From the sequence record OQ031495: DNA of 64,000 bases. One strand, written 5' to 3'. The first letter of the stretch is position 1. Every line of letters starts with the position of its first letter. Below the pieces are notes generated by a model. It was not told the DNA's origin. It made no database searches and was given only the letters and a program-made list of their open reading frames with translations. A program made the translations under genes and the position numbers. This DNA is from Escherichia phage MRostami-2023e. Shown here piece after piece: positions 1,913 to 11,381 of this stretch.

Positions 1913-2077
1913 ATGACTACTTTAATTATTTGGTTCGATGAAAATGAAGAAACATACTGTGTGAATATTGGTGAAAGTCCAATGCCCGAATTTGAATCCT
2001 CAGATAAAAACTCTGTTGTATCTTGGGCTGAAGGTTATAAAGCAGCTAAAGGTGACGTTGAAATAATTTACATCTAA
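1913..2077 (+). CDS. hypothetical small protein (54 aa)
   Basis: GGAG Shine-Dalgarno 8 nt upstream of ATG; fits between flanking genes. Confidence 0.4.
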   Translation: MTTLIIWFDENEETYCVNIGESPMPEFESSDKNSVVSWAEGYKAAKGDVEIIYI

Positions 2078-2123
2078 GTAAGTTTATGTTATAGTAATCA
2101 CATCAAATCAAGAGGAAAACAAA

Positions 2124-2351
2124 ATGGCTAAAGTTAGTATTGATGTCGTTGATTATGAATACACAGAAGAAGTTATTCGCAACCGTCACCCTGAAGTTCG
2201 TATCGATTCAGTACAAGATTCCAAGTTCTGGACAACCGAGCTTAATCTGAGTGGTCCTTATGAAGCTGTTAAGAAGTTCATGGTTGAAGAATACTGCGAA
2301 GGCATGCACCCCGAAGACGCCAAGTTTTATGTCAATTTGATTAAAAAATAA
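2124..2351 (+). CDS. hypothetical protein (75 aa)
   Basis: AAGAGGAAAACAAAATG start context. Confidence 0.55.
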   Translation: MAKVSIDVVDYEYTEEVIRNRHPEVRIDSVQDSKFWTTELNLSGPYEAVKKFMVEEYCEGMHPEDAKFYVNLIKK

Positions 2352-2386
2352 TTTACAAACTCTTGAGAGCAGAGTATAATGCTCTC
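2352..2386 (+). promoter_or_regulatory. promoter candidate (TTTACA ... TATAAT) with the -10 inside an inverted repeat
   Basis: tttaca(2352-2357), TATAAT(2375-2380), inverted repeat gagagc/gctctc; near-identical copy at about 32994-33045. Confidence 0.45.
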
Positions 2387-2421
2387 GTTGGATAATAAAC
2401 CACCAATTGAAAGGTAATAAT

Positions 2422-3015
2422 ATGAACACACTGAAGAAACTTGTTGAATTCATCCGCACTAAACTGGGTACTGCTATGGCTAAAAATCTGACTGTCGAAG
2501 AACAGTATAACGCAGCTGCAGATAAGTTGATTACCCAAATCAAAGAACTAAAAACGGCTTCTGTTAAATCTATTAATGAAGAAAAACGTATTCGCGAACT
2601 TGTTAATGAAAAGAACAAGCAAGCCGCTTCTAAGGAACGTGAAATTCGTAAGCTCCTGGCCGAAGGACAAGATGTTACCATGCATGCTAAGCTTGGTCTT
2701 CTGTATCGTCGAACTGCCGAACAACTTAATACAAAAGCTGACGGGTATGCCGCTATGCGAATTGAAATTGCTCGTAAGGTGGTTGAACTTGACGATGCTC
2801 GTCAGAACCTGGCAATCAAACTCGAATACATTCGCGAAACTCGAGCAGCTAATGCCCTTGGTATCTCTACGGCCGATGATGTAATTGAAATCGCTGCACT
2901 GACTAAGGTTGATATCGAAGACACTCTGACTCGTGTTGAAACGTTCAATGGCACTCCAGCTGGTGTCGAAACCACTTCTGCTGATGTACAAGAATATATT
3001 AACTCTTTGAAATAA
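2422..3015 (+). CDS. coiled-coil protein (197 aa), weak PspA/IM30-like pattern
   Basis: Long heptad-like charged helices; assignment by eye only. Confidence 0.5.
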
Positions 3016-3023
3016 AATAATAC

Positions 3024-3046
3024 GGAGGACTCCGGTCCTCCTTTTG
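3024..3046 (+). terminator. rho-independent terminator
   Basis: ggaggac-tccg-gtcctcc followed by TTTT. Confidence 0.6.
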
Positions 3047-3064
3047 GATAATAAAGGAGTTAAC

Positions 3065-3667
3065 ATGCGAAACCAAAATAATGATATTGACTCAATGTTC
3101 GAAGAGTTCCGAGATAAGGTAAATCCACCTACGTCTTTAGTTGATTCATTACGATATGTTGCAACTGGGCGTAAATGGTACTGGTCGTCTTCTTATGAGA
3201 CTACTGAGAAAACAGCTAGCCATAGCAGAAAATCTTTATTAGCCCCAGGTATTATGATTCATGATATCGGAGCTATTGCTAAACTAGTTGCAGACCATGA
3301 TATTAGATTCACCGATTTCGTTGCTCCTACATGGTCTGTTTGTTGTTTAAACACCGAATGGGAATATATCAGCGAACGCTCTAAAGATTATTATGGTTTT
3401 AGAGATAAGCTTTTAAGGTCTAACATGTTTTATATTGATACAGAAGTTCTGGTCAATAATAAAAAATACTACTTCACTTTAATCGTCGATTCTGAAACTA
3501 TGTATGAAGGCAAGCCTTTGCTTAAAAGAGTTGATGCTTTAAGTGCTATTGATGCGCTTTATGAAACTATGGTTGTTAGTCCTAATTTCACTAACAATTT
3601 AATCCTTGAGCAATTTATTATGGAATGTAGAGAATATGTCAAAGCCAACCCTATACATGCCAAGTAA
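3065..3667 (+). CDS. hypothetical protein (200 aa)
   Basis: AAAGGAG Shine-Dalgarno plus ATG. Confidence 0.55.
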   Translation: MRNQNNDIDSMFEEFRDKVNPPTSLVDSLRYVATGRKWYWSSSYETTEKTASHSRKSLLAPGIMIHDIGAIAKLVADHDIRFTDFVAPTWSVCCLNTEWEYISERSKDYYGFRDKLLRSNMFYIDTEVLVNNKKYYFTLIVDSETMYEGKPLLKRVDALSAIDALYETMVVSPNFTNNLILEQFIMECREYVKANPIHAK

Positions 3668-4031
3668 GCCCTGGGCATACGAATACAAACGTAAATTAAT
3701 CCCAAACGAAGTACTATTTGGCCCTATTTTAGCTTTAGCATTTTTAATCTTTATGATTATAGGAGCTGTTTTAGATTCCAATAAAGTTATATCGTCCGAT
3801 GCAGCGTTTTCATTAATGTTCGTCGCACCACTTATTGTACCGTTTTTATTAATGCCTATTAATTGGGTAGGATATTGGCACCAAGGCCGTCATCACAGAG
3901 CTCGAGTTCGTGAGTGGAAAGTTCAGTGCGCAAAAGCCCAAGCTCAGTATGATGAAGCTGTTAAAAAGTATGAATATGAAGAAGCTATGGAATTCGTTAA
4001 GGAGATAAGATGCAAAAGCCACAACTCTTAA
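3636..4031 (+). CDS. small membrane protein; member of paralogous family with conserved C-terminal tail
   Basis: Two hydrophobic segments; C-terminal EFVKEIRCK related to the ENFIKECR tail of paralogs; start uncertain (alternative ATG at 3654). Confidence 0.45.
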   Translation: MSKPTLYMPSKPWAYEYKRKLIPNEVLFGPILALAFLIFMIIGAVLDSNKVISSDAAFSLMFVAPLIVPFLLMPINWVGYWHQGRHHRARVREWKVQCAKAQAQYDEAVKKYEYEEAMEFVKEIRCKSHNS

Positions 4032-4369
4032 CCGTATGGCCTTCTCTTGGTGAGAACATTCTAATTTTTATTATGAGTATTGGCATGGGATTTGCCTTTG
4101 GATTAGTTGGATTTCTTATTGACGGCGTTGTGTTAGGATTTATAGGGAACACTGGTGGATTCACAGACCAATGGCAGGACTTACGGTATACCCAAGCCTT
4201 TGCATCCATCGCATCCTTTTGTACTGTAGTCTATTTTTACTACGATTTTATAAACCGTAACAAGAAAAATAAAAAGGTTTACGCTTCTCAAATGGTTAGT
4301 TATAATGAACTCCTAGCTAGACGTGAAAATGAAACAATCGAAAACTTTATTAAGGAATGTAGAAAATGA
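4010..4369 (+). CDS. small membrane protein, paralog family (C-terminal ENFIKECRK)
   Basis: AAGGAG Shine-Dalgarno; hydrophobic N-terminal half; conserved C-terminal motif. Confidence 0.6.
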   Translation: MQKPQLLTVWPSLGENILIFIMSIGMGFAFGLVGFLIDGVVLGFIGNTGGFTDQWQDLRYTQAFASIASFCTVVYFYYDFINRNKKNKKVYASQMVSYNELLARRENETIENFIKECRK

Positions 4370-4671
4370 GTAAGATTATTGAAATTAAAGTACCAGAGTT
4401 TAATGATGCCAAATCCGCTTCAGACGCAATTTATAAACTTCTGAATCAAGCTGAACGTATCGAAGAAGAAGCAACAAAGATCGCAGACCAATATGCCGTA
4501 TCATTTTCTGTAGGTGATTATGGTAGCGGTCGTACTTATTATCCTAAGGGTGAAATCGTATCCCAGTGGATGAAAGATGAAATTGAAAATAATGGTGGCG
4601 ATGTTAAGCGTGAAGGTAATGGTTACGTTATTACTGAAGGTGCTTGGGTTTCGTCTTCTGCGTTGTGCTAA
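4366..4671 (+). CDS. hypothetical protein, first of three tandem paralogs (C-terminal GAWVSSSALC)
   Basis: ATGA overlap with upstream gene; shared C-terminal GWVSSSxxC motif. Confidence 0.6.
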   Translation: MSKIIEIKVPEFNDAKSASDAIYKLLNQAERIEEEATKIADQYAVSFSVGDYGSGRTYYPKGEIVSQWMKDEIENNGGDVKREGNGYVITEGAWVSSSALC

Positions 4672-4680
4672 GGAATCATT

Positions 4681-4953
4681 ATGTCTAAAGAACAAACCGA
4701 ACTGGCTGAAGCTGTAGCAAAAATCTATGCAGCTATTGAGGCTGCCAAAGAAATTGCTGATAAACAAAACACAACATTCAACTTGTACCCAGCTTATGGT
4801 ATGGGTGGAACCTATCATTCACCCGGACAGCTTAAAGCCGATCTTGAACGTTGTACAAAAAACGGCTATGCTGAATGGGCCGACGTTTACCAATACGACT
4901 ACAACCTGAGCCTCGAAACTGGTGGTTGGGTTGCATCTTCTCACACTTGCTAA
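4681..4953 (+). CDS. hypothetical protein, tandem paralog 2 (C-terminal GGWVASSHTC)
   Basis: Shared C-terminal motif and helical N-terminus. Confidence 0.6.
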   Translation: MSKEQTELAEAVAKIYAAIEAAKEIADKQNTTFNLYPAYGMGGTYHSPGQLKADLERCTKNGYAEWADVYQYDYNLSLETGGWVASSHTC

Positions 4954-4962
4954 GGAAACCAT

Positions 4963-5160
4963 ATGTCTCGTGAATTGGATTGTGCTGTACGTACGGCAGT
5001 AGCTGCTCTGGAAAACCTGTTCCAAATTGCAACAGAAGAACGCGAAGAAGTTACATTATGGATTGAAGATAACGCAGGTCTGAATCTCCAGGACGCGATC
5101 TCATTATCCCACAATAGTATCACTGTTCAAGGCTGGGTATCATCTAGTTATTCTTGCTAA
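4963..5160 (+). CDS. hypothetical protein, tandem paralog 3 (C-terminal QGWVSSSYSC)
   Basis: Shared C-terminal motif. Confidence 0.55.
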   Translation: MSRELDCAVRTAVAALENLFQIATEEREEVTLWIEDNAGLNLQDAISLSHNSITVQGWVSSSYSC

Positions 5161-5164
5161 AACA

Positions 5165-5195
5165 GTTTACAACAAGATAGGGCTATGTTATAGTA
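5165..5195 (+). promoter_or_regulatory. T4-type early promoter candidate
   Basis: GTTTACA, 18-nt spacer, TGtTATAGT; palindrome ataggact/agtcctat around the -10. Confidence 0.5.
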
Positions 5196-5222
5196 GTCCT
5201 ATCAAATTAAATGGAGTTCACA

Positions 5223-5462
5223 ATGATTTATTACGAAAGTATCGGAACCGAAGTAGTTGCTAAAACTATTACTCGTGAAAAGTTTGCAAAGATATTCGAT
5301 ATGCGTTATAAAAAATCTGAACACAAAGGCATCCGATTCGAAGATGCGCACTGTACAATTTGCCCTTATAATGAAGACATAAACGGTACAATCGTTCCAT
5401 TGGTAGAGGCTTCACATGTCGACCTCTGGGATGAATATGATATCGCATGTCGTGAAATTTAA
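5223..5462 (+). CDS. hypothetical protein (79 aa)
   Basis: GGAG Shine-Dalgarno upstream of ATG at 5223. Confidence 0.5.
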   Translation: MIYYESIGTEVVAKTITREKFAKIFDMRYKKSEHKGIRFEDAHCTICPYNEDINGTIVPLVEASHVDLWDEYDIACREI

Positions 5463-5490
5463 GTTAATGAATTAATCCGAGGAAAATATT

Positions 5491-6447
5491 ATGATGTTAG
5501 TTATTGGTTCTCGTGCACTTCACTATCACGGTCTTATTGATTCTAGCGCTATCAAAAATAGTGATTGGGACTTTATTGCGGACCAATGTTCTTGGAATGC
5601 ATTCAAAAATCAAATGATGGGTGTATATGTCCACCAAGATAACCCTGATGTCCAAGTTTTCAAATGCTTCCATAATGGACGCGAAACTCATTTTGAAGCA
5701 TATATTGTTCCGGCAATCACTAACGTTCGCGAACTAGTCGGTGAACTCACTCCTGAAGATTTCACGTCTTCTTATGACCTTTTAAAATACGCCAAGAAAA
5801 ATTTGACTAAAGACCGTTTGAACGGGTTTTACTGGGCAACTCCCGAGATATGTCTTGCAATTAAGATGTCTCATCGTTTCAAGAAAAATAATCCATTCTT
5901 TTTAAAGACTATGAACCATATTCAGTATCTTCGTGGTAAAGGTGTTACACTGAACGATGAACTTACTGAAATTATGCTGAAACGCCAGAAAGAAACCTTG
6001 AACTATGCTCACCCAGTTCTTGACACTTCTAAAAGTGCGTTCTTTAAAGATGACATCTATACATATGACCATGATACTATTCACGAAGCCATTGCGTTAA
6101 CAGGCCGCCCAGCGTATACATTTTATATGAAAGACGGTTCTGAAGTCATGACCTCACGTGAGAAGTTCGAATCGTTACCAGAAATGGTCAAATTGGCCGG
6201 TGTATATGAAGAATCATGTGTACTAGCATTAGAACGTTCTCAGATTCCTAATGACTTTAAAATTAACCCTGAAGCCAGTTTCATGATGGCATTAGAAAAA
6301 GTCTGCACAAGCATCACCTCCGGTTGGTTCCGTGAATACGCATACGAGAACTACAGCAAAGTTGTAAGTATGTATCATAAGCTCGGCAAAAATGATTACA
6401 TTAAACGGTTTAAAGAAAATTTTCATATGGTGAAACCTTTCAAATAA
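5491..6447 (+). CDS. hypothetical protein (318 aa), possible minimal nucleotidyltransferase fold
   Basis: N-terminal GS...(15 aa)...DWDF pattern resembles Pol-beta-type NTase hG[GS]/DxD motif; weak. Confidence 0.5.
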   Translation: MMLVIGSRALHYHGLIDSSAIKNSDWDFIADQCSWNAFKNQMMGVYVHQDNPDVQVFKCFHNGRETHFEAYIVPAITNVRELVGELTPEDFTSSYDLLKYAKKNLTKDRLNGFYWATPEICLAIKMSHRFKKNNPFFLKTMNHIQYLRGKGVTLNDELTEIMLKRQKETLNYAHPVLDTSKSAFFKDDIYTYDHDTIHEAIALTGRPAYTFYMKDGSEVMTSREKFESLPEMVKLAGVYEESCVLALERSQIPNDFKINPEASFMMALEKVCTSITSGWFREYAYENYSKVVSMYHKLGKNDYIKRFKENFHMVKPFK

Positions 6448-6728
6448 CTTCACAAAACTGTTTACANNNNNNNNNNNNNNNNNNNNNNNNNNNNNNNNNN
6501 NNNNNNNNNNNNNNNNNNNNNNNNNNNNNNNNNNNNNNNNNNNNNNNNNNNNNNNNNNNNNNNNNNNNNNNNNNNNNNNNNNNNNNNNNNNNNNNNNNNN
6601 NNNNNNNNNNNNNNNNNNNNNNNNNNNNNNNNNNNNNNNNNNNNNNNNNNNNNNNNNNNNNNNNNNNNNNNNNNNNNNNNNNNNNNNNNNNNNNNNNNNN
6701 NNNNNNNNNNNNNNNNNNNNNNNNNNNN

Positions 6729-6760
6729 GTTTACACAATTATAGGACTATGTTATAGTAG
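6729..6760 (+). promoter_or_regulatory. T4-type early promoter candidate
   Basis: GTTTACA ... TGtTATAGT immediately after masked region; same palindrome as at 5165. Confidence 0.45.
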
Positions 6761-6786
6761 TCCTATTAAAACATGAGGAGAATATT

Positions 6787-7092
6787 ATGAAATTAACAGA
6801 AACCAATCGAATTGGTCTTTTAACAATACTTGCATCACCTTTTTACGCAACTCTTTCTGTTGCGGTATTACAAAAGGCTTACAGTATGGATGGTGTTCCT
6901 GGTTGTATATTTTTATCACCATTTTTGCTATTCGTTGGAGCTTTGTTATTATATGCCACGTCTGGTTTCGACAATAATGTCTGGGTCAATTATAAACGTA
7001 AATTGTCTGAAGAAGAACACGCAGAAGCTCGTAAAAAAGCTATTGAATCTACCAATCTAGAAAATTTCATTAAAGAATGTCGAGGAAAATAA
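6787..7092 (+). CDS. small membrane protein, paralog family (C-terminal ENFIKECRGK)
   Basis: Two TM-like segments; conserved C-terminal motif. Confidence 0.6.
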   Translation: MKLTETNRIGLLTILASPFYATLSVAVLQKAYSMDGVPGCIFLSPFLLFVGALLLYATSGFDNNVWVNYKRKLSEEEHAEARKKAIESTNLENFIKECRGK

Positions 7093-7093
7093 T

Positions 7094-7780
7094 ATGAATA
7101 GTTCTAAAGTGTTTAATAGTCAAGCTCGTGCAGTAGGTGGTTTTGCTCATGCGATTAAAAACGACCAGATTAAAAACGAGCCTATGTTCTTCAACTGTAG
7201 TTTAGAATTTGCTTATAATAACGGCGGTCCTATTACTCGCAGCTTCATCATGAACTTGCCAGATGATTGGAACACCGACCAGGTTGTATTTGATTCACGA
7301 GTCCACATGCTGATGCCTGGTTGGTACCCTGCTATCCCAGGTTATCACCATGACGATGTACCACGCCCGGATATTCCGGTTGGTCAACACTTTATTACTG
7401 CAGGACAACCTGACTATGACAATCCTCGCTATTTGTCTGAACATATTCTTGGTCTTGTTAACGCTGATGTGTGTCCTACTCATTTTGCAACAGGAACTGC
7501 AGAGTTCAGTCAGATTCCTGATGGCGAACTTATCTATCGTCAGTGGCACAAAGAAGTCCTCGAAAAAATTGAAAAAGGCGAACTAGAGAAATGGGAAGCT
7601 CCAGATCGTACTCTTCTTCAGTTTGATTGGCAAACATGGCACACTGGTTCTCGTGCAATTAGTAACGGATGGCGTTGGTTCGGACGTGTATCTCGTAATA
7701 CAGACCGAGTTAAAAAGATTACCAATGAAATTCGTGTCAATGCCCAAGTTTATCTGGAATTCCCTATGGAAGGCTGGTAA
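7094..7780 (+). CDS. hypothetical protein (228 aa)
   Basis: ORF with coupled start; His/Asp-rich segment GYHHDD; function unknown. Confidence 0.55.
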   Translation: MNSSKVFNSQARAVGGFAHAIKNDQIKNEPMFFNCSLEFAYNNGGPITRSFIMNLPDDWNTDQVVFDSRVHMLMPGWYPAIPGYHHDDVPRPDIPVGQHFITAGQPDYDNPRYLSEHILGLVNADVCPTHFATGTAEFSQIPDGELIYRQWHKEVLEKIEKGELEKWEAPDRTLLQFDWQTWHTGSRAISNGWRWFGRVSRNTDRVKKITNEIRVNAQVYLEFPMEGW

Positions 7781-8271
7781 TGATTAACAAAACATATTGG
7801 TCTAATATAGACGATGGCAACGAAGGTATTTCATACTATTCAGTAGATTGGTCAGGATGTCCATCCTACTTAGTGAAGCATATTTGCCAAGAATTTAAAA
7901 TCGACCAGCCAGCAGGTATTATCGTGAACAGATACATTAATGGATATCAACCTATCGATGAAGTAATACGAACAACTCAAGCTGAGCTTGAAAAGTTTTT
8001 CAATAAGTGCCAATGGATAACAGGATGGATTATATTTGTACCGTCGGTATGGTTTTTTAGTACTAAGGTGAGTTCTTTCGGTTTTGTTGATATTATTGCT
8101 ATCTTATTAGCATCTACTATCGTAAGTATTATTGGTGGCATCATTGGCGGCGGTACCGCCGCCATCATTATTAATCTTGTTAAAAGTAGTTTACAGGAAC
8201 GTAAAGACAGGATAAAGGCCAAGAATAATGAAGTTGAACGTTTTATTACCGAATGCAGGAATTTGAGATGA
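7780..8271 (+). CDS. membrane protein, paralog family (C-terminal ERFITECRNLR)
   Basis: ATGA overlap; Gly/Ile-rich TM segments; conserved C-terminal motif. Confidence 0.55.
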   Translation: MINKTYWSNIDDGNEGISYYSVDWSGCPSYLVKHICQEFKIDQPAGIIVNRYINGYQPIDEVIRTTQAELEKFFNKCQWITGWIIFVPSVWFFSTKVSSFGFVDIIAILLASTIVSIIGGIIGGGTAAIIINLVKSSLQERKDRIKAKNNEVERFITECRNLR

Positions 8272-8504
8272 GTATAGCAATTTACATTAAATCAGAATCA
8301 TGTGATAGTTATCTATACACATACGATAAAGATGTGTCAGAAGAAAAAATCAAAGACGACCTTAATATGGACCTTGATATGTTCTGTCCTATTGCAGATT
8401 ACAAACTTGCGGTCTCTAATAGTGAAAGTCCATCTAAAGAAACGCGCATTGAAGAATTTATGTCCGAATTAATGGCCAAATCATGGGACCGAGATGATGA
8501 GTAA
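8268..8504 (+). CDS. hypothetical acidic small protein
   Basis: ORF; start ambiguous between 8253 and 8268. Confidence 0.45.
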   Translation: MSIAIYIKSESCDSYLYTYDKDVSEEKIKDDLNMDLDMFCPIADYKLAVSNSESPSKETRIEEFMSELMAKSWDRDDE

Positions 8505-8952
8505 GAAAAATAAAGTGAAAGAACTATCAGCCGGTATTATTTTCCTTACCGAAGATAAAGAATTATTCATGGGGCGTGTAACTGGTTCTCGTCCTAAAGG
8601 TTCTTTAGCTCATCGGTGGGATATTCCTAAAGGACGTGTCGAGCCCGGTGAATCTCCTATCGAAGCCGCTATTCGCGAATGCGAAGAAGAAACTGGGTTT
8701 ACACAATATGACCCTGCCTTCCTGAAAGACCTAGGTGAACATCATTACTCAGACAATAAGAATATTCATCTGTTCCTATATACCATCCCTGTAGAGCACG
8801 AGCAATTCAGAAACAGTGTTTGTAATTCCTATCATACGTTCCCAGACGGACGTCAGATTCCTGAATTTGATGCATTCGCTTTAATTAAACCTTCTCAATG
8901 GGAATATGTAATGGGCAAATCATTATATAAGGTGCTCACTACCCTCCTATAA
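8494..8952 (+). CDS. nudE: Nudix hydrolase NudE (T4 e.1 homolog)
   Basis: Nudix box GRVEPGESPIEAAIRECEEETG; position immediately upstream of e. Confidence 0.8.
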   Translation: MMSKKNKVKELSAGIIFLTEDKELFMGRVTGSRPKGSLAHRWDIPKGRVEPGESPIEAAIRECEEETGFTQYDPAFLKDLGEHHYSDNKNIHLFLYTIPVEHEQFRNSVCNSYHTFPDGRQIPEFDAFALIKPSQWEYVMGKSLYKVLTTLL

Positions 8953-8960
8953 GTAATAAA

Positions 8961-8984
8961 TACCTCCTATAAACGTGGGAGGTA
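8961..8984 (+). promoter_or_regulatory. RNA hairpin sequestering the Shine-Dalgarno of lysozyme gene e, with late-promoter-like TATAAAcg in the loop
   Basis: tacctcc (8961-8967) pairs with ggaggta (8978-8984), which contains the GGAGG SD 5 nt before the ATG. Confidence 0.55.
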
Positions 8985-8986
8985 TT

Positions 8987-9475
8987 ATGAATATATTTGA
9001 AATGCTTCGTAATGACGAAGGTCTTAGACTGACTTTATACAAAGACACTGAAGGCTTTTGGACGATTGGCATAGGCCATTTAGTAACAAAGAACCCGTCT
9101 TTAGCCGTAGCTAAAGCTGAACTTGACAGAATGATCGGACGTAAATGCAACGGTACAATTACCCTTGATGAGGCCGAAAAGCTATTTAATGAAGACGTTG
9201 ATAAAGCCGTTCGCGGAATCTTGGGTAATGCTAAACTTAAACCGGTATATGATTCTTTAGATGCGGTTCGTCGTTGTGCATTGGTCAATATGGTCTTCCA
9301 AATGGGTGTAGCAGGCGTCGCCGGTTTTACTAATTCTCTTCGTATGCTTCAACAGAAACGTTGGGATGAAGCGGCAGTAAATCTAGCCCAATCTAAATGG
9401 TATCGTCAGACACCTAATCGCGCGAAACGCGTAATCTCAACATTTAAAACAGGAACTTGGAAAGCGTATATATGA
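8987..9475 (+). CDS. e: T4-type lysozyme (endolysin, gene e)
   Basis: MNIFEMLR...DEGLRL..YKDTEG..TIGIGHL...[27 protein letters not shown] matches remembered T4 lysozyme nearly throughout. Confidence 0.95.
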
Positions 9476-9753
9476 AAACATATAGTGAATTTTTATCAGA
9501 ATCTATTCTTAACGAAGCTACTGACACATTTGCAACTAAGCTAGGTGCAGCTTTGGTTGAAGCCGAAAGTCTACTAGCACGTATTTCTGAACTTGCTAGT
9601 AAGATAGATACTCGCAAATTTGAACGTACTAGCGATATCGCTAAGCTTGAAGCCTTGTTACGTATGTGCAATAAACCGGAAGAAATCGCTAAGAACGGCT
9701 CGCTGATGAAACAACGTCTTGAAAAATATATTTCAGGCGCTTCAGAAAAATAG
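9472..9753 (+). CDS. internal protein (IPII/IPIII-like) with capsid targeting sequence
   Basis: N-terminus [10 protein letters not shown]; T4 position of ipIII/ipII between e and denV. Confidence 0.65.
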
Positions 9754-9788: not shown

Positions 9789-9811
9789 TCATCAACTACT
9801 TGGAGGAAATT

Positions 9812-10348
9812 ATGACTCGTATCAATTTAACACTTGTTTCTGAACTGACCGACCAACATCTTATGGCTGAGTATCGTGAATTACCACGCGTATTTGGTGC
9901 AGTCCGTAAACATGTTCAAAACGGTAAACGTGTAAAGGATTTTAAAATCTCTCCAACATTTATCTTAGGCACAGGTCACGTAACATTCTTTTACGACAAA
10001 CTTGAATTTTTACGTTTAAGACAAATCGAGCTAATCGCTGAATGTTTGAAACGTGGTTTCAAAATCAAGGACACGACAGTCCAGGATATTTCCGACATCC
10101 CTGCCGAATTTCGTAATAATTATGTCCCGTCCGAAGCGTCCATTGCGATAAGTCAAGCACGCTTAGATGAAAAAATTGCTCAACGTCCGACTTGGTACAA
10201 ATACTATGGTAAATCAATTTACCAAGGAAAAATGAAAATGTATCAAGAATTTATCATTGAAGCAGATGCCAAAGGTCCTAAAGTAGATGTTGACGATATT
10301 GGATACGATTTTAACAACTTCGGAATTATTTCTGGCGGTAAAGCTTAA
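9812..10348 (+). CDS. denV: endonuclease V (pyrimidine-dimer DNA glycosylase DenV) with about 40-aa C-terminal extension
   Basis: First about 136 aa match remembered T4 DenV ([34 protein letters not shown]..); normal stop position is read through into [16 protein letters not shown].. Confidence 0.85.
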
Positions 10349-10411: not shown

Positions 10412-10729
10412 ATGAAAACATATAAAGAATTTATCGCCGAATCTGCTGCAGGACAACGTGTAGAAGGTGGTTATATCTGGATTGAACAAGTTGAGCCGCC
10501 AAGTCGCACTTCTACAGGTAAATGGAAAATCACTGTTGATGGTCCTGGTGGTAAACGTAGGACTCTTAAAGAAATTAATGGGTACTATGAAGAAGCTCTT
10601 TCTGACGCGGGTACTTATATGATGCAAATCATGATTAAAAACCCAGAAAATCGTTTTGCGGCTAGAGTTTTCCGCCGTATTGGAAATAAGCTTTATGATG
10701 CATATTCTAAAAACTTCCCTAAAGAATAA
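10412..10729 (+). CDS. internal-protein-like protein with capsid targeting sequence
   Basis: N-terminus MKTYKEFIAES. Confidence 0.6.
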   Translation: MKTYKEFIAESAAGQRVEGGYIWIEQVEPPSRTSTGKWKITVDGPGGKRRTLKEINGYYEEALSDAGTYMMQIMIKNPENRFAARVFRRIGNKLYDAYSKNFPKE

Positions 10730-10745
10730 AAATTAAAGGAAACAT

Positions 10746-10777
10746 ATGAAAACATATCAAGAATTTATTACTGAAGC
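10746..10777 (+). CDS. internal-protein-like gene, 5' end only (continues into masked region)
   Basis: AAGGAAACATATG start; MKTYQEFITE capsid-targeting-like N-terminus; truncated by N-run. Confidence 0.5.
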
Positions 10778-11381
10778 NNNNNNNNNNNNNNNNNNNNNNN
10801 NNNNNNNNNNNNNNNNNNNNNNNNNNNNNNNNNNNNNNNNNNNNNNNNNNNNNNNNNNNNNNNNNNNNNNNNNNNNNNNNNNNNNNNNNNNNNNNNNNNN
10901 NNNNNNNNNNNNNNNNNNNNNNNNNNNNNNNNNNNNNNNNNNNNNNNNNNNNNNNNNNNNNNNNNNNNNNNNNNNNNNNNNNNNNNNNNNNNNNNNNNNN
11001 NNNNNNNNNNNNNNNNNNNNNNNNNNNNNNNNNNNNNNNNNNNNNNNNNNNNNNNNNNNNNNNNNNNNNNNNNNNNNNNNNNNNNNNNNNNNNNNNNNNN
11101 NNNNNNNNNNNNNNNNNNNNNNNNNNNNNNNNNNNNNNNNNNNNNNNNNNNNNNNNNNNNNNNNNNNNNNNNNNNNNNNNNNNNNNNNNNNNNNNNNNNN
11201 NNNNNNNNNNNNNNNNNTATTTACATTCAAATAACATGGGAACAACCTGGACCTCATGATTCTATGAGGGATTCCCGCCAACCTGTAATAAGGTCGAGCC
11301 CAAGTGCGGTAATGGGTTTACATAGCGAGTCGAAGGACCTAACATGTGCCACGGAATGGCCCAAACCTTAAGAGAAATAAT

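Follow-up and report, generated by a model that had tools for sequence, protein, structure and literature searches.

Why should neighbouring early genes of a T4-like phage, encoding proteins that otherwise do not resemble one another, end in the same short peptide? The question is raised by a segment of Escherichia phage MRostami-2023e (sequence record OQ031495), which we analysed as one stretch of 64,000 nucleotides (hereafter the window), and in which open reading frames (ORFs) lying between the homologues of the T4 genes e.6 and nudE terminate in variants of E-N-F-I-K-E-C-R, here called the tail. Judging from its sequence, the phage is a Mosigvirus (RB69-like), with positions 3000-9000 of the window being 100% identical to Escherichia phage vB_EQ1 and 96-98% identical to many Mosigvirus genomes. 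The genes e.2-e.6 are already-known conserved hypotheticals. Their counterparts in T4 and RB69 (e.5-e.2 and RB69ORF133c), annotated as "conserved hypothetical" or "predicted membrane", are orthologous to the window ORFs and stand in the same order between e.6 and nudE; e.2-e.6 have been labelled "conserved hypothetical" since the annotation of T4, yet they are expressed early in that phage. What is new is the shared tail, of which we found no description in annotations or in the literature searched, and its linkage to e.6.

The tail and its carriers

With gene identities assigned from the T4 and RB69 records, we observe the tail on five ORFs, all on the plus strand. The soluble e.5 homologue (3065-3667, 200 amino acids [aa]; phrog_2607, E 6e-96, and homology to T4 e.5) carries L-E-Q-F-I-M-E-C-R-E at 3605-3634, with the protein ending in ...LILEQFIMECREYVKANPIHAK. 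It is followed by the e.4 homologue (3636-4031, 131 aa; phrog_2604, E 9e-65), which shows a variant tail, E-F-V-K-E-I-R-C within M-E-F-V-K-E-I-R-C-K, at 3990-4013, and by the e.3 homologue (4010-4369, 119 aa; phrog_2330, E 3e-49, 37% identity to T4 e.3), with I-E-N-F-I-K-E-C-R-K at 4337-4366 and a stop codon that overlaps the next ATG (ATGA). Further downstream, the RB69ORF133c homologue (6787-7092, 101 aa; phrog_9798, E 4e-63, and RB69 annotation) ends in L-E-N-F-I-K-E-C-R-G-K (7057-7089), and the e.2 homologue (7780-8271, 163 aa; phrog_2203, E 4e-55, RB69 e.2 and family alignment) in V-E-R-F-I-T-E-C-R-N-L-R (8233-8268). Orthology with T4 e.5, e.4, e.3 and e.2 is borne out by the PHROG matches together with 37-47% identity to the T4 proteins, and each of the five carriers falls in a separate PHROG of unknown function. 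Searches of Pfam, PADLOC and PDB sequences with all carriers gave no match (at E ≤0.1, Pfam returned two hits, both at chance level).

Translated in all six frames, the 64 kb contain four matches to a strict form of the tail, E.F[IVLM].E[CI]R (at 3608, 4340, 7060 and 8236), compared with a mean of 0.01 matches in 100 shuffles, and all four matches lie on the plus strand, in real ORFs, 9-19 codons upstream of the stop. One of them falls in the e.5 homologue, a fifth carrier absent from a preliminary description of this DNA that had listed the other four ORFs as small membrane proteins with a common tail. Those four ORFs and the tails quoted for them are all present where they had been placed, with three of them having the full tail and the first (e.4) only a variant of it. 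The hydrophobic segments followed by a basic region that had been reported for them were recovered as well: each of the four has two hydrophobic segments (Kyte-Doolittle 19-residue peaks of 1.7-2.7; in e.3 the scan gives a single peak, and two transmembrane [TM] segments are seen on reading by eye) and a basic C-terminal stretch containing 8-11 Lys plus Arg. In the e.2 homologue, a soluble N-terminal domain of about 78 aa precedes the two TM segments and the tail. Because Lys and Arg are concentrated in the N- and C-terminal parts and not in the short loop between the segments, both ends, and the tail with them, are predicted to be cytoplasmic (N-in/C-in for e.4, from TM segments and charge distribution). 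The top hydrophobic segment of e.5 reaches 1.56, under the cut-off of 1.6. By these sequence criteria, the carriers in the window are a soluble e.5 homologue and four two-pass inner-membrane proteins, and the label of small membrane proteins fits the four ORFs first listed but not the tail as such, since the same tail sits on soluble e.5 and, in other phages, on soluble proteins of 80-160 aa.

Beyond the window, we compared syntenic loci of T4, T4T and Killian (Tequatrovirus), RB69, VR20 (Gaprivervirus), IME341 (Dhakavirus), IME523 (Kanagawavirus), PM2 (Mosugukvirus), Mineola (Jiaodavirus), Marfa (Marfavirus), Serratia phage X20, Erwinia phage IT22 (Roskildevirus), Aeromonas phages 31, AS-yj and a ZPAH1-like phage, Citrobacter phage Margaery (Pseudotevenvirus) and two metagenomic contigs. 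Related tails end one to six ORFs in every e.6-carrying lineage examined, and the 37 tails collected share the consensus [L/F/I]-[E/N]-x-[F/W]-[I/V]-K-[E/x]-C-R-[K/R/G], located 0-15 residues from the stop. When a position-specific scoring matrix (PSSM) made from the 34 unique tails is run over 79,871 ORF positions in 14 loci, the top 47 positions all lie ≤30 residues from a stop, and a loose form of the motif is enriched 6.3-fold in the last 22 residues of ORFs in nine loci (Fisher P = 1e-13). The tail is real, statistically robust and widely conserved, and as an aid to annotation its 10-residue pattern marks one to six ORFs per genome as one functional module. TM proteins carry 25 of the 37 tails and soluble proteins 12, the latter including e.5 everywhere, proteins of 92 aa in IME523, 95 aa in Marfa and 102 aa in Mineola, and three in the ZPAH1-like phage. 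A variant, F-A-K-x-L-K/R, is found on another membrane protein in PM2 and Marfa, with a looser F-A-G-E-I-K-K in IME523.

The tails of T4 itself read EKFVKECRE (e.5), MKFVKESRCK (e.4), KEFVIDCRKIK (e.3) and NNFITECRKLK (e.2b). The e.2 gene, whole in the window, is split in T4 (T4 locus about 4490-4650, minus strand; T4T locus 2878-2988): e.2a stops after the first hydrophobic segment, and in the T4T record e.2b is a short frame that still ends in ...NNFITECRKLK and overlaps the annotated nudE start. In Tequatrovirus Killian, e.2 is intact (162 aa). Other searches reached less far, with a protein homology search using the e.3 homologue giving three near-identical proteins only and a locus search with the e.5 alignment giving six loci. 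A degenerate ENFIKECR DNA pattern run against IMG/VR returned ten loci, made up of Mosigvirus copies and three unrelated context groups; the latter are put at about chance level because their matches lie in short ORFs or inside larger proteins.

Do the carriers form a paralogous family, as the preliminary description had it? Comparison of the family profiles with hhalign aligns C-terminal columns only (18 for e.3/e.2, 10 for e.2/e.5 and 32 for e.3/e.5), and BLASTP among the window proteins is restricted to the last 23-27 residues, the lone exception being 6787-7092, which weakly matches phrog_2203, the e.2 family, over its C-terminal half (E 0.0015). On this evidence, and given that each protein belongs to a different PHROG, the claim of a family goes too far: as far as alignments can tell, what the carriers have in common is a C-terminal module, attached to bodies that are otherwise unrelated. 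Diverged tandem paralogues of one small membrane protein, keeping the tail for their own folding or self-oligomerisation (for example as a coiled coil), would nevertheless account for the common layout of the membrane carriers, with two TM segments, a basic helix and the tail, as well as for the match just mentioned; clear recent paralogue pairs are present in PM2, Marfa and contig L033, and the heptad-like hydrophobic spacing of the tail suits a coiled coil. We consider this origin rather unlikely, as the same tail occurs on soluble, unrelated bodies (e.5 and the small soluble proteins of IME523, Marfa, Mineola and locus L035), only the tails align in profiles, and parallel lineage-specific changes among tails with different flanking codons (see below) fit a shared partner better than self-association. 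Within the e.2 homologue we also observe an internal tail-like peptide, L-E-K-F-F-N-K-C-Q (residues 70-78; 7987-8013), just before the first TM segment, which may be the relic of a fusion between a tail-bearing soluble ORF and a downstream membrane ORF.

Constraints on amino acids and on nucleotides

In the window, the tail Phe lies 17-28 nt upstream of the next ATG in every case, so close that the tail could be a by-product of the downstream translation initiation region, the peptide itself being functionless. Several features agree with such an origin. The codons for K-E, K-G, R-G and R-N supply AAGGA, GAGGA or AGGA 7-9 nt from the next ATG, and in e.4 the codons AAG GAG ATA AGA TGC (K-E-I-R-C), AAGGAGATAAGATG, are exactly the Shine-Dalgarno (SD) sequence plus the ATG of e.3. 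Four of the five junctions are unusually unstructured, like initiation regions (fold z-scores of +0.8 to +1.6, worse than shuffles; the fifth is at -2.2), and T4 retains the e.2 tail before nudE although e.2 is split.

What is conserved, however, follows the amino acids. Position 0 of the 37 tails is F (TTT/TTC) or W (TGG), position +4 is C in 29 (TGT 18, TGC 11), and position +5 is R in 34, encoded by AGA (15), AGG (8), CGT (8), CGA (2) and CGC (1). The synonymous differences already reported between the window copies (AAG/AAA, TGT/TGC, AGA/CGA/AGG) are correct. Across nine genera, e.5 proteins with 18-47% identity have only four invariant columns, N96, F184, C188 and R189, the last three of which are in the tail; in the e.2 family (five genera) F155, I156, C159 and R160 are invariant and the invariant columns cluster in the tail, while in the e.3 family the tail Phe is the sole invariant tail residue. 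Orthologues of e.4 retain F-[IVL]-K-E-[ISV]-R, with Arg encoded by AGA, CGA and CGT.

The distance to the next start site is not kept in the same way. From the tail Phe to the next ATG it is 40 nt in VR20 e.5, 49 nt in IME523 e.5 and elsewhere up to >60 nt, and both of these e.5 proteins retain F, C and R despite the distant ATG. In Mineola, AS-yj and Aeromonas phage 31, the tail is also kept where the next gene begins only after an intergenic stretch of 29-68 nt, in some cases with an annotated ribosome-binding site (RBS) of its own. Moreover, which part of the tail supplies the SD differs from gene to gene, and F, I and C add nothing to it. Because the spacing ranges from 17 to >60 nt, Arg is encoded by both AGR and CGN, and F alternates with W, the tails do not behave as an element of initiation or coupling only; an origin as an initiation by-product is largely refuted, and we regard it as highly improbable. 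Alignment likewise favours selection at the protein level, as first proposed, over a likeness limited to the RBS context. As the sequences read, the initiation region of the next gene shapes the tails, strongly so in e.4, without explaining them. An explanation through RNA structure was also considered and was ruled out by the absence of any Rfam match over 2000-9600 (E ≤1) and of a common stable fold at the junctions.

Tail DNA together with the next start site could also have been acquired passively, as a short repeat for gene shuffling. In IME341, which lacks e.4, a chimeric e.5 ends in ...ECREYAK/EVQNGTA, with its junction (slash) in the e.4/e.3 start homology AARGRGGTTCRWAATG, and the internal LEKFFNKCQ of e.2 suggests an old gene fusion. 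Set against VR20 (locus coordinates 8952-9014 in IME341 and 8555-8963 in VR20), the IME341 e.5 end, ...ECREYAKEVQNGTA, corresponds to a VR20 e.5/e.4 chimera, and in sequence the loss of e.4 looks like a clean deletion via short-homology recombination. Tails and start sites can therefore act as recombination points. The known shuffling elements of T4-type phages are the PeSLs, mobile cassettes made of a promoter and a stem-loop (PMC2839356, PMC4122927), which resemble the tail in being short repeated elements at gene borders in hyperplastic regions, but are distinct from it: PeSLs are non-coding and conserved at the nucleotide level, whereas the tail is coding and conserved at the amino acid level. 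Nucleotide identity among tails is low while the amino acids are kept, and passive acquisition leaves the invariance among orthologues unexplained, so that a recombination linker seems barely plausible as the reason for the tail.

Anatomy of the tail and its candidate partner

If the peptide itself is what is conserved, its likely form is a helix, with the consensus hydrophobic(-3)-[E/N]-x-[F/W](0)-[I/V](+1)-K-x-[C or V/I/M/L](+4)-[R/K](+5)-[K/R/G]. The hydrophobic positions -3, 0, +1 and +4 then fall on a single helix face, and +2, +5 and +6 are basic. Hydrophobic moments of the window tails are 0.35-0.69; in the background, the mean is 0.29 and the 90th percentile 0.48. The only substitutes for Cys at +4 are V, I, M, L, A and S, which argues for a packing residue and not for a nucleophile, metal ligand or catalytic residue. 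A structural model of e.5 (pLDDT 58) places the tail in a separate terminal helix, residues 180-194.

Short terminal amphipathic helices with a basic flank are also found at the C-termini of MinD and FtsA and as alpha-0 of PspA/Vipp1, and the tail could in the same manner lie in the plane of the membrane, bringing soluble e.5-type proteins to it and sensing the lipid state in TM carriers. Its hydrophobic face is flanked by K/R, the moments exceed the background mean, and the predicted alpha-0 of e.6 is similarly patterned. Such helices, however, are normally conserved in character, whereas in the tail F, C and R are near-invariant in identity; coliphage tails often have acidic residues at -2 and +3, the hydrophobic moment passes the 95th percentile in just one of the five window tails, and the tail sits on integral membrane proteins, which need no targeting helix. 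We judge membrane targeting to be unlikely.

The capsid targeting sequence (CTS) of T4 offers another precedent, being a terminal peptide of about 10 residues on otherwise unrelated proteins of the same region, and by analogy the tail might be a prohead-core targeting signal or a mark for cleavage or degradation. The two share F-I-x-E-[A/C]-[R/K] (CTS MKTYQEFIAE/AR, a partial E-F-I-x-E-A-R/K match; the gp21 consensus is I/L-x-E), and the two motifs are both found repeatedly in this genome segment. Scored with the tail PSSM, CTS N-termini reach 5.7-9.0 (ranks about 56-90 of 79,871), which is no better than random internal matches. The T4 CTS is N-terminal, cleaved by gp21 and directed to the prohead, whereas the tail is C-terminal and sits on membrane proteins, and two-pass membrane proteins are implausible as capsid cargo. 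Glu at +3 is present in only 18 of the 37 tails, with most non-coliphage tails having N, S, G, Y or H there. The resemblance is real but weak; on the missing Glu and the unremarkable PSSM scores this reading was rejected, and we hold it to be the least probable of those weighed.

The way in which tails vary points elsewhere. Within a genome, tails agree with one another at +3 and +5 more than in all 20,000 permutations (P ≤5e-5 each). Position +5 is K in each of the five tails of contig L034, and the differences among their flanking codons speak against gene-conversion tracts. In contig L033, all five read F-A/T-K/R-x-L/M/V-K or a close variant, with F-A-K-x-L-K/R on three of the five downstream membrane proteins and F-T-R-G-L-K and Y-L-K-T-L-R on the others. 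Since non-orthologous tails of one genome vary in concert, the sequences suggest that all carriers dock on one common partner. We tentatively infer that the tail is a cytoplasmic C-terminal amphipathic docking helix for such a partner, with e.6 as the favoured candidate, and give this reading somewhat less than an even chance. The helix would bring every carrier to one cytoplasmic partner, with the membrane carriers serving as anchors and e.5 as a soluble client or adaptor, in an arrangement analogous to PspB/PspC-PspA or LiaI-LiaH. In practical terms, one peptide could be used as bait for the partner, and one type of point mutation (F, C or R) could disable the gene set.

The candidate partner, the e.6 homologue (2422-3015, plus strand, 197 aa), would be the head gene of the same early transcription unit. 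A T4-early-type promoter-like site, TTTACA-17-TATAAT (2352-2380, plus strand), matching 11 of 12 consensus positions and identified by this match only, is probably the start of the unit e.6-e.5-e.4-e.3, and e.5 has no promoter of its own comparable to that of e.6. Between e.6 and e.5 lies a terminator-like GC hairpin followed by a T run (3024-3041, plus strand), which has an equivalent after e.6 in T4 and is possibly an attenuator keeping e.6 more abundant than the downstream tail genes. That the region is early, as had been assumed, is supported by T4, where e.2-e.6 all belong to the early RNA class and have all been detected as proteins (PMC9697503 supplements). In 16 of the 16 e.6-containing lineages examined, e.6 is immediately followed by tail-bearing genes, and in the syntenic 50 kb of RB49 neither e.6 nor the tail was found. 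The e.6 gene is present in 1,109 phage records, and its product shows 62-88% identity among genera where e.5 is at 17-47%. Covariation between e.6 and the tails was also considered: D124N and R127L of e.6 are common to AS-yj and L033, but are confounded by overall divergence.

The preliminary description had suggested membrane-acting factors of superinfection exclusion or host takeover, for which the tail would be the effector end that they share. Early expression and an inner-membrane location agree with this, and PHROG files phrog_2203 under "moron, auxiliary metabolic gene and host takeover", though merely as "membrane protein". No carrier matches Imm, Sp or any defence or anti-defence family in Pfam, PHROG or PADLOC, soluble carriers exist, and the genes are conserved and syntenic across distant genera, unlike sporadic exclusion morons. 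In addition, the side to which the tail is exposed is the cytoplasm and neither the periplasm nor the incoming DNA. The gene context points instead to a module headed by e.6; we found no support for superinfection exclusion, and regard a role in exclusion or takeover as very unlikely.

Returning to the docking helix, what kind of partner would e.6 be? Its AlphaFold2 model (pLDDT 75) has an N-terminal amphipathic helix and a hairpin of helices of about 55 residues, and in a Foldseek search of the PDB the best eight matches are all Vipp1/IM30, at weak E values of 8e-3 to 3e-2 and none at E ≤0.001. In its predicted structure, e.6 therefore resembles most, though weakly, the membrane-remodelling Vipp1/PspA scaffolds of the ESCRT-III superfamily. 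Psp and Lia systems recruit their scaffold to the membrane through small membrane proteins (PMC7619361), and the phage locus is laid out alike: a gene whose model is weakly PspA/Vipp1-like stands ahead of small inner-membrane proteins whose ends are cytoplasmic, probably within a single transcription unit. Together with the linkage to e.6, this suggests a scheme of the Psp or Lia kind, with the tails bringing an e.6 scaffold to the membrane. It differs from the known systems in that the carriers have no sequence homology to PspB, PspC or LiaI (Pfam), e.6 has no significant sequence link to PspA, and the components are phage-encoded, with several anchors sharing one putative docking peptide and with a soluble carrier besides. 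If the arrangement holds, the small inner-membrane proteins and e.5 would bring e.6 to the cytoplasmic face of the inner membrane during infection, possibly to keep the membrane energised after DNA injection or during lysis inhibition, or to act at membrane-bound assembly sites.

Several points weigh against the docking reading and its extension to Psp. The e.5 model is poor, with a confidence <50 in the tail helix, and the start site of e.3 places heavy constraints on the e.4-type tail. Concerted variation could stem from recent within-genome duplication of tail-bearing genes or from a host partner, and where genes are as densely packed as in a phage early region, their being neighbours is weak evidence that the products interact. 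As for the fold of e.6, long helical hairpins give promiscuous fold matches; Pfam PspA_IM30 does not match e.6, hhalign of the e.6 family against E. coli PspA reaches only E 0.17, and an exhaustive hidden Markov model search of 1.84 billion proteins yielded only 46 e.6-like clusters and no bridge to PspA. That T4-like phages encode their own Psp/ESCRT-III-like membrane-maintenance system, with e.6 as scaffold and F-I-K-x-C-R-K tails as recruitment code, is thus doubtful in our estimate. A phage-encoded PspA/Vipp1-like protein of the e.6 kind is not described in the literature searched. Were e.6 the partner and of Vipp1/PspA type, it would be a virus-encoded member of the bacterial ESCRT-III superfamily with its own recruitment code, and would bear on how lytic phages maintain the function of the host membrane.

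Neighbouring genes and elements

The gene order of the segment is that of T4 and RB69, e.6 > e.5 > e.4 > e.3 ... e.2 > nudE > e, with nudE at 8494-8952 and the lysozyme gene e at 8975-9475 (homologues by T4/RB69 comparison). Relative to T4, Mosigvirus has extra genes, about 3.4 kb, between e.3 and e.2, including the carrier at 6787-7092. Masked runs of N occur at 6468-6728, about 1800-1830 and about 10776-11220, the first of which corresponds in phage APCEc01 to a 66-aa ORF without the tail.

Near-identical early-promoter-like sites, GTTTACA...TATAGT, overlap stem-loops just upstream of genes at 5160-5205 and 6729-6775 (stem-loops TAGGGCTATGTTATAGTAGTCCTAT and TAGGACTATGTTATAGTAGTCCTAT), and from their sequence both look like PeSL cassettes. 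A second family, of small soluble proteins with the C-terminus G-W-[VI]-[SA]-S-S-x-x-C directly before the stop, is present in three tandem copies in the window (4366-4671, 4681-4953 and 4963-5160) and in two to five copies in IME523, PM2, Marfa, X20 and contig L034, its genes being interleaved with the tail-bearing ones. Two larger genes lie in the same segment, encoding a DUF7277+DUF7275 protein of 318 aa (5491-6447), which is close to e.6 in Aeromonas phages 31 and AS-yj, and a 228-aa protein (7094-7780; phrog_1843), which in AS-yj immediately precedes e.6; PDB sequence searches matched neither. As both are near e.6 in Aeromonas phages, the whole segment including these two genes may be one functional module.

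Four ORFs, at 796-1428, 9457-9753, 10412-10729 and 10746-11234, start with a CTS-like M-K-T-Y-x-E-F-[IL]-x-E (in one case M-Y-T-F-N-E-F-L-A-E), and since they begin with a capsid targeting sequence, several internal-protein-like genes appear to flank the e region. The denV ORF (9800-10348, 182 codons) runs on in frame into a CTS-like start, so that in this sequence denV looks to have lost its stop codon and to be joined to the beginning of an internal-protein-like gene; in APCEc01, denV and the internal-protein-like gene are separate coding sequences.

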